Virus record (IMG/VR): IMGVR_UViG_2778261179_000003
Origin: a virus
Taxonomy: Duplodnaviria > Heunggongvirae > Uroviricota > Caudoviricetes
Length of the DNA stretch: 4,964 nucleotides
Direction: 5' to 3' (one strand)
Shown here: piece after piece, positions 1 through 4,964 of the stretch
How the letters are laid out: the number at the start of each line of letters is the position of its first letter
Position numbering within the stretch: position 1 is the first letter of the stretch
The notes under the pieces: model-generated
Told to the model about the DNA's origin: nothing
What the model saw: only the letters and a program-made list of their open reading frames with translations
Database searches by the model: none
Made by a program: the position numbers and the translations under genes

Positions 1-71
1 CCGTTCATTTTACGGATTGCTTTCGTCGCGTCGCTGATAACGAGAATATCGTCTTTAAGGTCGCGGTCTGA
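1..71 (-). other. Predicted start of a C-terminal intramolecular chaperone / self-cleaving peptidase S74-type domain of the tail fibre (continues beyond the window)
   Basis: In the stf frame, codons at 71..54 read S-D-R-D-L-K followed by DDILVISDATKAIRKMN. This gives a Ser and a Lys five residues apart inside an SDxxLKxxI-type motif, which matches my recollection of the catalytic Ser-Lys dyad signature at the start of endosialidase-chaperone (S74) domains in phage tail fibres and tailspikes. Recognition is from memory only. Confidence 0.45.
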
Positions 72-3000
72 TGACTGATTCAGCGTTGTGCAATTAATAG
101 CGCCATTTACATCAAACAACTGGCCTGCTGATGTTTTTTGCGCATAAAACAGATACGCAGCAGACGTTCCAACCTCAAAAACGTTTTGTCGATCACTTGA
201 TCCCCATACTTTTGCGGCAAATGATAGTTCTGTATTACCTAAGTTCTGTAAAATAAAACGATTGCCAGTCCCTGTTTGTTTTGTAAGGGTTAAATCAACA
301 GTTGAGTTAACCTCATCCTTGTTGATAGTGAGCGCCTGCGCTTTAGCCCCGTTAACAGCACCTGTTTTGAGTTGAACCGCGCCGTCATTACCATTTAGCA
401 GTATCTCAGCTCCGCTAAAGAAATTTTTTAGCGACAGCATCTTACTTACGCCGACTGATGAACCCAACGCCCACGCGAGAGAATTACCGGTGCTATCAAA
501 CCCACGTACAAAGCAATCCATTTTGCTATAGTCTGACGTGCTTCCAAGGACATCAATTCGCCCTCCGCCAGATTTTACCGGGTTAGATGTGGTTAATGAC
601 CTGACAGCAAGATCGGTAGATGAATTGAGATCGTCTACTGTTAATAGTCGTTTCCATCCCTTATCAACCCCAGCCTCAAAGCTTCTTGCCCAAAATTTGG
701 AGTTGCGACCGGCGAATTGTGTGACGTAATTACCGCTAAATTGAGCATGGAACCCGCCAACAACCATTGTTCCGTCAGGACCGCCTGCGCTCCCTGCTAT
801 TGGCTTAAACTTATTTACATTCTCTGTATGTTGAGTGCTCCAGTTTTGCCCTGTGTGAACAACCAATCCCTGATAAGAACTGAAGGTACCATCAAGGTTA
901 AAATTAAAGAACTTGCTGTTCCCTGAATTATTTATGTCCCTGACAACAATTTCACCAGAAGCGTTAGCGGCCCTTAGTTCAGTTTGATCGACAACCGGAC
1001 CGCCTTCGGATTGTAATCTTTGAGAAACAAATGTTCTGTTTGAAACTTCCGTACCATACGCGGTGAAAGATTGTGTTGCTTTAATCTGACCATTGTTTAC
1101 AAATATAGGAATAGTGACGGTAAAATTTTTGTCAAAACTCAGGCCATTTGTTAATGCAATCCTTTCTGACACCCCTTGTCTGAACGGAAGGTTGCTGTAG
1201 AAGCCATGTTCACCGCCAGTGAAGTCAAGAACATTTTTAACAAAGTTCTTGTCGTTATCCTCCGTTGACGTTGATACACCAAACTTATATCTAACCCCGT
1301 TGTCACCAATTACGTAGTCTTCTGTTGGTACAGTAACTCGCGCTTTAAAGCCTGTTTGCAATAATATCGGGAAAGCGGATTTATGGATATAGAACGCTAC
1401 ATATTGCTGGTAATCTTTCTTCGATACTTTAAGGCAAAGTATCCCTAGCTCATTTTTGTCATAGGCAACAAATGAGCCGCAAGCTATGCCACCGCATCGA
1501 AAATATCCACTAAATGTATTGCTATTCATCGGGTCTGATGCTGAACGCCCTGCTGTTTTTATATCAATAGGACATGCCAGGTTGCCGTAACCTTCCATTG
1601 CGGATGTGTCTATTATGACAGGGTAGTATTTGCCATCCTCTGCACCTTCTGGCGCTTGCAAGGTTATAGCTTTGGTTAATCCACCCTCAGGGATTTGCAA
1701 ATTAGTTTTGGCGTCATTAAGGCTATTTGCGCCAGTGCCACCCTGGGCTAAACCTAACGGAGACCATTTTCCAGAAGAAGAATTATAAACCCCCCAATTC
1801 CCGTTTGTATGGATTTCAAGGAAACGATCACCAGTTGGGCCATATACGCGAGTTGTTGATTCATTTTGACTAAAGCGGCTTACTTCATCCTTTCTTGCGT
1901 GACGGGTCCATTGCGGGCCAGAACTTTGGCTGTAAATGTACGAATACAATGATTTTGTATCTGAACCAACAAATAGACCGGAATATCTTTTTGTTGACAC
2001 TTCTGATCTAACTATATAACCAGAAATAAGATTATCCCCGGCACTAGACGCTACTGATGGATAACCTTTCGCTGAGATGTAAATCCTGACAAATCCAATA
2101 TAACCTGATGGCTCAACAGAGATATCAGTGCAGGTCATGGCAACTTCACCAAGACCAATATTGTTACCAACAACGGATTGTGCCTGGTTGCGATAATTAA
2201 GTGCGTCCGCCGCAGATTTCGCCGCGTTTGTTTCACTGGATTTAGCATTAGTTTCGCTGGCTTTAGCGTTTGTTTCGCTGCTCTTTGCTGCTGCCTCGCT
2301 ATTTTTCGCGTTGGTTTCTGATTTTTTGGCTGCTGTCGCGGAGTTTGCCGATGCAGTTTGTGAGTCTGCTGCCGCCTGTGCGCTGTTATCCGCATTCGTC
2401 TCAGACGTTTTTGCGGCCTTCGCGGAATTTCCTGCCGCCGTTGCCGAGGAAGCGGCATTACTGGCGCTCGAGGCTGCGCTCGTTTCTGATGATTTCGCTG
2501 CCTCTTTTGAGGCCGCCGCATCCCGGGCTGAGGTGGCAGCTTCTGACGCTTTCGTGGTCGCGGTGGATGCAGAAGTGGCTGCAGATTTTTGTGACGCTGC
2601 AGCATTCGTTTCTGACGTTTTCGCCGCACCGGCACTGGTAGCCGCCGCGCTTTTTGAGGACTCTGCAGCGGCAGCACTTTTTGATGCTTCAGTAGCCTTT
2701 GTTGATGCCGTTCCTGCGCTGGAAGACGCTGACTGAGCCGACGTCGCGGCCTGCCCGGCTGATGTGCTGGCTGCACGTGCTGAGCCTGCAGCATCAGTCG
2801 CATGGGTTGCCGCCTCACGGGCTGATGTGCCGGCATCGCTGGCTGACTTCTTCGCGGCTGCCGTGTTCTGTTCCACTGCGGACGCGTTACGCGCCACCTC
2901 TTCCACCATCAGTTCAAAGCGGCGCAGTGCCTCCGGACGGGCATCATCCTCCGTCATGGCACCGAGAAAATCATTCAGCGTACCCGGTTGTGAGTCTTCA

Positions 3001-3233
3001 TACACGGTGATGATCCCGGCATGCGATGGCGGGAAGCCTTCCACCAACAGAATAACGCTGTACTGACCGTACTCAACGTCCATGCTGTAACGCCCGGCTT
3101 CATCCGGATTTTCAGATGCCACCGTGTTCACCACCACCGTGGTGCTGTTACGTTTTGCTTTCAGCTGGATTGTGCAGTTCTGTACCGGTTTACCTGCACC
3201 GTCTTTCAGTACACCTGAAATCTTTACTGCCAT
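1..3233 (-). CDS. stf: Side tail fibre protein (Stf-like), 5' end complete, 3' end truncated by the window edge; more than 1070 codons in the window
   Basis: Minus-strand ATG at 3233..3231, preceded by an in-frame stop at 3275..3273 and a G-rich stretch (GTGGGGTG, complement of 3237..3244) just upstream. Hand translation begins MAVKISGVLKDGAGKPVQNCTIQLKAKRNSTTVVVNTVASENPDEAGRYSMDVEYGQYSV..., which I recognise as the conserved N-terminus of lambda-family side tail fibres. Frame checked by codon at 3233, about 2100-2160 (IGLGEVAMTCTDISVEPSGY), about 1680-1760 (PLGLAQGGTGANSLNDAKTNLQIPEGG), about 1503-1535 (DPMNSNTFSGY) and 3-80 (NQSSDRDLKDDILVISDATKAIRKMN); no stop met in this frame. Absent from the ORF track only because there is no stop within the window. 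Positions 1-2 are a partial codon. Confidence 0.88.
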   Translation of the reverse strand, partial: MAVKISGVLKDGAGKPVQNCTIQLKAKRNSTTVVVNTVASENPDEAGRYSMDVEYGQYSVILLVEGFPPSHAGIITVYEDSQPGTLNDFLGAMTEDDARPEALRRFELMVEEVARNASAVEQNTAAAKKSASDAGTSAREAATHATDAAGSARAASTSAGQAATSAQSASSSAGTASTKATEASKSAAAAESSKSAAATSAGAAKTSETNAAASQKSAATSASTATTKASEAATSARDAAASKEAAKSSETSAASSASNAASSATAAGNSAKAAKTSETNADNSAQAAADSQTASANSATAAKKSETNAKNSEAAAKSSETNAKASETNAKSSETNAAKSAADALNYRNQAQSVVGNNIGLGEVAMTCTDISVEPSGYIGFVRIYISAKGYPSVASSAGDNLISGYIVRSEVSTKRYSGLFVGSDTKSLYSYIYSQSSGPQWTRHARKDEVSRFSQNESTTRVYGPTGDRFLEIHTNGNWGVYNSSSGKWSPLGLAQGGTGANSLNDAKTNLQIPEGGLTKAITLQAPEGAEDGKYYPVIIDTSAMEGYGNLACPIDIKTAGRSASDPMNSNTFSGYFRCGGIACGSFVAYDKNELGILCLKVSKKDYQQYVAFYIHKSAFPILLQTGFKARVTVPTEDYVIGDNGVRYKFGVSTSTEDNDKNFVKNVLDFTGGEHGFYSNLPFRQGVSERIALTNGLSFDKNFTVTIPIFVNNGQIKATQSFTAYGTEVSNRTFVSQRLQSEGGPVVDQTELRAANASGEIVVRDINNSGNSKFFNFNLDGTFSSYQGLVVHTGQNWSTQHTENVNKFKPIAGSAGGPDGTMVVGGFHAQFSGNYVTQFAGRNSKFWARSFEAGVDKGWKRLLTVDDLNSSTDLAVRSLTTSNPVKSGGGRIDVLGSTSDYSKMDCFVRGFDSTGNSLAWALGSSVGVSKMLSLKNFFSGAEILLNGNDGAVQLKTGAVNGAKAQALTINKDEVNSTVDLTLTKQTGTGNRFILQNLGNTELSFAAKVWGSSDRQNVFEVGTSAAYLFYAQKTSAGQLFDVNGAINCTTLNQSSDRDLKDDILVISDATKAIRKMN
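2200..2890 (-). repeat. Low-complexity, G+C-rich Ala/Ser/Thr/Lys/Glu/Asn-rich coding region within stf (predicted fibre shaft)
   Basis: Hand translation of the stf frame here is dominated by motifs such as AAKTSETNA, SAATSASTATTKASEAATSA and KSSETNAKASETNAKSSETNAAKS. The GCN-rich composition also generates the long spurious ORFs seen in other frames and on the plus strand in this interval. Confidence 0.75.
2226..2288 (-). repeat. Three tandem imperfect 21-nt repeats, in frame with stf, encoding heptads AKSSETN / AKASETN / AKSSETN
   Basis: Plus strand: gtttgtttcactggatttagc (2226..2246), attagtttcgctggctttagc (2247..2267), gtttgtttcgctgctctttgc (2268..2288). The reverse complement of each unit translates in the stf frame to a 7-residue unit. 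Confidence 0.7.
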
Positions 3234-3244
3234 ATTCACCCCAC

Positions 3245-3271
3245 AAAAAAGCCCGCCTGAACCGGCGGGCT
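3245..3271 (-). terminator. Rho-independent terminator downstream of lom, immediately upstream of the stf start
   Basis: Plus-strand GCCCGCC (3251..3257), 6-nt loop, GGCGGGC (3264..3270), a perfect inverted repeat; on the minus-strand transcript the hairpin is followed directly by a U6 tract (complement of A-run 3245..3250). About 27 nt downstream of the lom stop. Confidence 0.6.
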
Positions 3272-3908: not shown

Positions 3909-3921
3909 GCTTTTCTGCAAT

Positions 3922-3945
3922 AAAAAAGGCGTCATTCCTGACGCC
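3922..3945 (-). terminator. Rho-independent terminator downstream of J, upstream of lom
   Basis: Plus-strand GGCGTCA (3928..3934), loop TTCC, TGACGCC (3939..3945), a perfect 7-bp inverted repeat; on the minus-strand transcript it is followed by U6 (complement of A-run 3922..3927). Lies 22 nt downstream of the J stop. The plus-strand side has an interrupted T-run (CTTTATT), so weak bidirectional activity is possible. Confidence 0.55.
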
Positions 3946-3967: not shown

Positions 3968-4964
3968 TCAACGAATACTGATGCCGGAAGCAGCCTTTTT
4001 GGTCACAATCACCGTACAGTCGGTGATATTGCCTGCCCCCTGATTGCCTTTCTGGAAAATCTTAAACTCCAGAGTGACGCTTCCCCTGCCACTCGGCATA
4101 TCAATAACCGCACTGTAACTACCGGGAATGGCCCCTTTAGTTTCTCTGGATGCGATTAATACGCCGTTTTTGCGAACTTCAAAACCATACCCCGTGTACC
4201 TTGTACCTCCCGGGTTATCACCACTTCCCGGATCGTCATACGCTATACCGTTAAAGATAATGGGCGGAATAATGATTTGACGGTCAAAGTTATGATCATC
4301 GCTGATGGTGACTGTAACCGTCCCGTCTGGTGTTTCCGTGTTACCCCACGTACCAGCCTTTTTCGGGAATGATTTGGATACTGTTTTAACAAAATCACCT
4401 CTGACCTGATTCGCCTCCAGCATGCCCTTAATCGTACAGTTTTCATTTATCGTGACGTTGTTGAGCGTCCCGGAGTTCGCATTCACACTGCCACTGATAT
4501 CCGCATTTTTAGCGGTCAGCTTTCCGTCCGGTGTCAGGGAAAATACCGGTGGATTTCCACCACTGGTAATGGTGGGGGCCGTCAGGCGTTTGAGGAACAC
4601 GTCGTTCATGAATATCTGGTTGCCCTGCGCCACAAACATCGGCGTTTCATTCCCGTTTGCCGGGTCAATAAACGCGATACGATTGGCGGCAACCAGAAAC
4701 TGGCTCAGTTTGCCTTCCTCTGTATCCTCCATGCTGAGGCCAAGCCCCGCGACATAATGCTTACCGTCTTCGGTCTGCTCAATTTTGACGCCCCACATGG
4801 CATTCCATTTATCGTTGGCGTCTTTCCACTCTTTCGAAAACTCATCCAGTCTGCTGGCGTTATCCTCCGTCAGGTCGACTTTTTCCAGCAGCTCCTTGCC
4901 GAGATGGGATTCGGTTATCTGGCCTTTGAAAAAATCCAGGTAACCTTCCGCATCATCGCTCGCC
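3968..4964 (-). CDS. J: Host specificity protein J / central tail fibre, C-terminal part (5' end outside window), including the receptor-binding C-terminal domain
   Basis: ORF-track entry 3968..4798 starts at an internal Met; the same frame stays open upstream to the window edge (hand translation of 4799..4963: [55 protein letters not shown], then [84 protein letters not shown]...). This is closely similar to the C-terminal region of lambda J as I recall it; the last roughly 150 residues are clearly more divergent. Position 4964 is a partial codon. Confidence 0.92.

Follow-up and report, generated by a model that had tools for sequence, protein, structure and literature searches.

A phage 434-type receptor-binding domain, predicted to use OmpC, at the tip of J in an mEp460-like lambdoid element

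The tail-tip protein J encoded at the right edge of the window, the whole 4,964-nt stretch of viral DNA analysed here, ends in a receptor-binding domain (RBD) that alignment identifies as the phage 434-type (h434) allele and not the lambda allele. Phage 434 is the classical example of a phage using OmpC ('protein Ib'). At the tip of a trimeric central fibre, the 434-allele RBD would most likely bind OmpC as its porin and not LamB, a reading to which we assign a probability of roughly 0.8. A 434-type J tip in an mEp460-like element is long known and common, and is therefore ordinary rather than new.

Gene content of the window

All genes of the window lie on the minus strand, in the order J, terminator, lom, terminator and stf (Table 1), and J-lom-stf is the standard lambdoid arrangement. 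The J frame exits at the right edge, leaving the 5' end of the gene outside the window, and closes with a stop codon at 3968-3970; mEp460, 434 and RefSeq E. coli genomes all carry a J annotation for this gene. Pfam Phage_Tail_Tip (PF09327) matches the shaft at approximately 4466-4846, corresponding to residues 40-166 of the window's J fragment (E 1.3e-34). A rho-independent terminator is annotated at the matching J/lom site in both mEp460 and 434. The closest phage record to the whole window is mEp460, with 96.3% identity over 91% of its length, and among complete E. coli genomes strain C8 comes closest (96.8% over 100%).

Table 1. Features of the 4,964-nt window, with the basis for each assignment.
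Feature	Coordinates	Strand	Basis
J, 3' part (tail-tip / host-specificity protein)	3968..4964	-	Translation; last 331 aa plus stop
J shaft of central fibre, residues 807-986	4424..4963	-	94% identical to lambda, 95% to 434
J receptor-binding domain (RBD), residues 987-1137, 151 aa	3971..4423	-	434 J identity, PF12421, AlphaFold2 model
Intrinsic terminator between J and lom	3919..3945	-	Hairpin GGCGTCA-GGAA-TGACGCC, then T-run
lom, Ail/Lom outer-membrane beta-barrel protein, 199 aa	3298..3897	-	ORF; PF06316, E 5e-123
Intrinsic terminator 3' of lom	3240..3271	-	8-bp stem with 7 GC pairs, T-run; annotated in mEp460 and 434
stf, side tail fibre, first 1077 aa; 3' end outside window	1..3233	-	Open frame, blastp; PF08400, E 4e-71

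The N-terminal 284 residues of the stf product are 85% identical to lambda orf-401 (blastp). Residues ~120-345 of Stf (window ~2135-3066) form an Ala/Ser/Thr-rich low-complexity stretch, which also gives rise to several long but spurious ORFs in other reading frames of both strands, such as 2135-2836(-) and 2311-2736(+), that are not genes. Stf leaves the window at ...NQSSDRDLKDD..., which looks like a possible beginning of an S74 intramolecular-chaperone domain, and S74 is annotated by RefSeq in homologues. A tandem-repeat scan of the window returned a single short array inside stf (2230-2280; 21-nt unit, 2.4 copies), and an Rfam scan of the window gave no match. The prophage sRNA svsR (PMC12803456) was considered and dismissed, as its place is at cI and it has no bearing on this region.

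Similarity to lambda J breaks at the receptor-binding domain

Residues 1-180 of the window's J fragment, equivalent to lambda J 807-986, are ~94% identical to lambda J (NC_001416) by pairwise alignment. Over the last 151 residues, identity is 34% with four indels in a global alignment and 35.2% by tblastn (E 2e-15), the drop beginning with J codon 987 (window nt 4423). An earlier note on this DNA had described a J protein that follows lambda closely before diverging at its C-terminus, and the alignments bear this out. Its estimate of the break, 4432, was three codons away from the actual position, and the two peptides that it compared are both real: the window encodes the 15-residue one, and lambda J contains DMPAGRGNVILTFTL. 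An identity above 90% to the lambda C-terminal domain would have spoken against divergence, and the 34-35% returned by alignment to lambda J is clearly below this figure. With four indels as well, the domain falls outside the lambda-type, LamB-binding allele, for which close identity to lambda J 987-1132 would be expected.

The divergent region matches PF12421 (Ig_GpJ_C, the gpJ C-terminal receptor-binding domain) with a score of 90.4 bits (cutoff 26.2; E 1.4e-25), across residues 195-330 of the J fragment and profile positions 1-134 of 135. This match lies at the extreme C-terminus of J, directly after the PF09327 shaft, and reaches the last residues before the stop. At this score, the scattered similarity to the lambda C-terminus mentioned in the earlier note is true homology and not chance. 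A monomeric AlphaFold2 model of the RBD, built on 38 homologues, is all-beta with a pLDDT of 80.7, and its best PDB match in Foldseek is 9wcb, the A8 gpJ with OmpC (TM 0.72, E 1.7e-15). The structural comparison with lambda that had been proposed for this region gave a superposition of the last 151 residues on the lambda gpJ tip (8xcj, gpJ with LamB) at TM 0.70. Together, the gpJ tips 9wcb, 8xcj, 8xck and 9wca, closed states included, score TM 0.70-0.72 with E about 1e-15, while other structures reach TM ~0.4 or less.

Because of the PF12421 match, the all-beta model and the gpJ tips as best structural matches, the RBD is, as modelled, an ordinary representative of the gpJ receptor-binding-domain family with an Ig-like fold. 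The domain match and the fold match to solved gpJ tips likewise support the proposal that the divergent part is the receptor-specificity domain of J. The RBD of lambda gpJ, a LamB binder (8xcj, 8xck), has the same Pfam domain, the same predicted Ig-like fold and the same place on a 94%-identical shaft, and its differences from the window lie in overall identity, in the loops that carry the four indels and in its receptor.

The J tip belongs to the phage 434 allele class

To assign the allele, the J tips of representative phages were compared over the region aligned to residues 181-331 of the window's J fragment. The RBD is identical to that of 434 J (OL657226) at 142 of 151 residues (94%) with zero gaps, and at 91.7% of nucleotides. 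It is closer still to mEp460 J (149/151 residues, 99%; 99.1% of nucleotides), and shares 95% of residues with WGPS6. All other allele classes are 34-44% identical to the window RBD, namely lambda, phi330 (= YYZ-2008, with 1H12 and BP-4795), PPompW/WGPS2/PhiR5_1, and 1720a-02.

The classical 'h434' host-range allele, which is associated with OmpC, is that of 434 J (UMO75286), whose total length of 1137 residues is the same as that of mEp460 J. There are no indels between the 434 and window RBDs, a long 14-residue loop and a DDPGSGxNPGG loop included, and the differences amount to nine substitutions (N991T, T1000A, S1004A, A1009V, D1055N, R1099G, I1108V, Q1110H and G1115R). The layout of J, terminator, 600-nt lom and stf is also common to both, whereas the downstream side tail fibre of the window is of a different and much longer type, unrelated to 434 Stf past the N-terminal ~247 residues despite the common J allele. 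In mEp460, the match extends across the locus: J (JQ182728, AFM76055) is identical at 329 of 331 residues over the window's J fragment, with only D1055N and I1108V differing in the RBD, lom is likewise 600 nt, and the lom and stf context is alike, with Stf 87% identical.

Two OmpC-targeting tips engineered by Eligo were considered as possible counterparts of the window RBD and rejected. The 'A8' gpJ (phi330/YYZ-2008 allele; 9wca, 9wcb), for which OmpC binding via the RBD is proven, belongs to the same domain family and provides the best structural match, but at ~42% identity and with shorter loops it represents a separate class. The A8 tip, whose structure with OmpC has been solved, has near-identical natural counterparts in Stx phage phi330 and in YYZ-2008; in the alignments shown, about two positions separate it from phi330. 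The second tip, '1A2', is closest to the PPompW/WGPS2/PhiR5_1 class, a best match read from an OCR-noisy supplement that does not yield an exact identity.

OmpC is the most likely receptor

OmpC is predicted as the receptor because 94% of the RBD residues are shared with 434, the indel-bearing loops are all kept, and 434 uses OmpC. The suggestion in the earlier note that the phage uses a receptor other than that of lambda is supported by this close match to a phage whose receptor is OmpC and not LamB, and is the best-supported reading of the tip. OmpC has been identified as the 434 receptor, and lambda carrying the 434 tail-fibre gene binds OmpC (PMC3509688; PMC11101478); OmpC use by 434 is also attributed to Hantke 1978 in a paper citing that work. 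A 2025 study treated the 434 central fibre as OmpC-targeting and modelled its docking (PMC12502783). Among lambdoid mEp phages, OmpC is reported to rank second to FhuA in receptor use. In papers other than the primary mEp receptor study, no usable receptor experiment was found for this exact RBD variant, for mEp460, for the PhiR phages or for other carriers.

Work on sister alleles shows how such a domain can determine receptor choice. When gpJ was exchanged only beyond residue 964, with stf replaced, lambda was retargeted from LamB to OmpC by the sister alleles A8 and 1A2 (PMC11338833), and the A8 gpJ-OmpC complex has been solved (9wcb). Lambda gpJ is a trimer whose bottom loops enter the trimeric porin, triggering tail opening (PMC11101478). 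In the element studied here, the last 151 residues of J would form an Ig-like RBD that caps the trimeric central tail fibre. By analogy with the lambda gpJ-LamB and A8 gpJ-OmpC complexes, three RBD copies would reach with their bottom loops into the mouths of the porin trimer on its extracellular side, and porin binding would then spread the RBDs apart, leading to fibre rearrangement and tail opening.

Two further lines of evidence were set aside. OmpC use by phi330 has been shown by knockout and complementation, and its closest relative was named as WGPS6 (PMC12502783), which carries the RBD allele of the window. However, the phi330 receptor cannot be transferred to the window via WGPS6, as the phi330 RBD is another allele (42% identical to the window), with a tip identical to that of YYZ-2008 and near-identical to that of A8. 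The hybrid phage lambda h434 imm21 (OM418627) was likewise rejected as proof that OmpC specificity resides in the J tip alone, as it also carries the lom, stf and tfa genes of 434. In the hybrid, lambda sequence extends to J codon ~705 and 434 sequence takes over by ~711, with this left crossover at locus 3120-3138. The 'h434' marker is therefore far wider than the J tip, and classical genetics does not separate the tip from the side fibre. The 434 DNA of this hybrid runs on through lom, stf, tfa and NleB/NleC-like effector genes, and its J also has D1050N.

The receptor-binding domain moves as a module

Tip alleles and J backbones were compared across phages. WGPS6 has a 434-type tip (95-97% identical) on a J backbone that is only 57% identical over the preceding 180 residues. 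Conversely, 1H12 and PPompW share a common J backbone (96%) with tips of different classes (63% identical), and phi330, BP-4795 and WGPS2 have a common backbone (93-94%) with differing tips (61-77% identical). On these alignments, the RBD is a mobile module, with tip alleles and J backbones assorting independently among lambdoid and Stx phages. Both lambda- and Stx-type J backbones show strong conservation in the stretch directly upstream of the break (window ~4424-4560), where the shaft ends in a 16-residue junction motif, and this conserved junction is a plausible site of homologous exchange, where recombination could swap the tip. The fusion point of the Eligo chimeras, at lambda J position 964 just upstream of the RBD, fits such a role for the junction (PMC11338833).

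Selection, variation and alternative readings

The RBD is under strong purifying selection within the 434 class, since its dN/dS against 434 is 0.083 (at dS 0.34), like that of the shaft (0.091); against WGPS6 it is 0.068. Within this class, 20 of 64 loop positions are variable compared with 15 of 87 strand positions, a marginal enrichment (Fisher p = 0.05) in a noisy set that includes fragmentary database sequences. Manual alignment to phi330 places substitutions 1055, 1110 and 1115 in loops homologous to its predicted OmpC-contact hairpins, while 1009 falls in the extra long loop of 434. Residue 1115 (window 4037-4039) is Gly in the window and mEp460, Arg in wild-type 434 and Trp in lambda h434 imm21. 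This site, in a loop homologous to the phi330 hairpin predicted to contact the OmpC rim, may be a hotspot of host-range adaptation.

These positions bear on how far the 434 receptor can be extrapolated. The nine substitutions could shift a 434-class domain towards a subset of OmpC variants or towards another trimeric porin (OmpF or LamB), given that the alignment places four of them (1009, 1055, 1110 and 1115) within or next to loops with predicted OmpC contacts, and that residue 1115 takes a third state in the laboratory hybrid. There is precedent for such fine changes: in lambda and phi21, a single J mutation or a few can be enough to extend or alter the range of porins used, phi21 gaining both OmpC and OmpF in this way, and the 1A2 allele uses EDL933 OmpC but not K-12 OmpC (PMC11338833). 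Against this, 94% identity without indels and a dN/dS of ~0.08 point to conserved function, the loop enrichment is weak, and the allele carriers Ayreon, PhiR26_1 and phi458 are recorded as propagated on K-12, as was 434. We consider it rather unlikely, although worth keeping in mind, that the specificity differs from that of 434; on the same tentative footing, the loop substitutions at 1055, 1110 and 1115 (G/R/W) in the window and mEp460 might retune the use of OmpC variants or add a second porin. If so, the widespread 434-class allele would represent a family of fine-grained host-range variants and not one specificity.

A different explanation assigns the OmpC dependence of 434-type phages to their side tail fibres, leaving the J tip to bind some other receptor. 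The h434 hybrid, which has 434 stf and tfa along with the J C-terminus, would allow this, and the Stf of lambda itself binds OmpC. Yet the Stf of Ur-lambda merely speeds adsorption, with equal titres on ompC mutants, whereas OmpC is described as the receptor of 434 for infection (PMC3509688; PMC11101478). Furthermore, sister-allele RBDs bind OmpC directly, both in chimeras without the native Stf (PMC11338833) and in the solved complex 9wcb, and the J allele is common to 434 and the window even though their side fibres are largely unrelated. A leading role for the side fibre is consequently very improbable. It is more improbable still, to the point of being hardly credible, that the divergent J tail is a decayed, non-functional remnant of a defective prophage. 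Many homologous database entries are indeed draft-assembly fragments, but the J frame is intact to a stop shared with the viable phages 434 and mEp460, the dN/dS of 0.08 is that of a constrained domain, and the terminator, lom and stf that follow are likewise intact. Binding of OmpC by a functional 434-type tip is therefore the reading that we prefer.

Prevalence and significance

The RBD allele was found in 2,112 of 5,426 complete E. coli genomes (~39%) at a nucleotide identity of at least 90%; single genomes carry as many as seven copies, and three of the matches are exact. At the same threshold it occurs in 74 phage records, and its carriers include WGPS6, other Stx-converting phages and cdtI phage. 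As a discovery this carries little weight, since it adds a further prophage or phage to the textbook case of host-range modularity among lambdoid phages, lambda h versus h434. In practical terms, the J tip should be annotated as '434-type, predicted OmpC-binding' and not as 'lambda-like, LamB'. The allele matrix, with its lambda (LamB), 434 (OmpC), A8/phi330/YYZ-2008 (OmpC), PPompW/WGPS2 (best match 1A2, OmpC) and 1720a-02 classes, offers a quick way to the likely receptors of lambdoid J proteins. With ~39% of complete E. coli genomes carrying this allele, OmpC-type tips would be dominant among resident lambdoid prophages.
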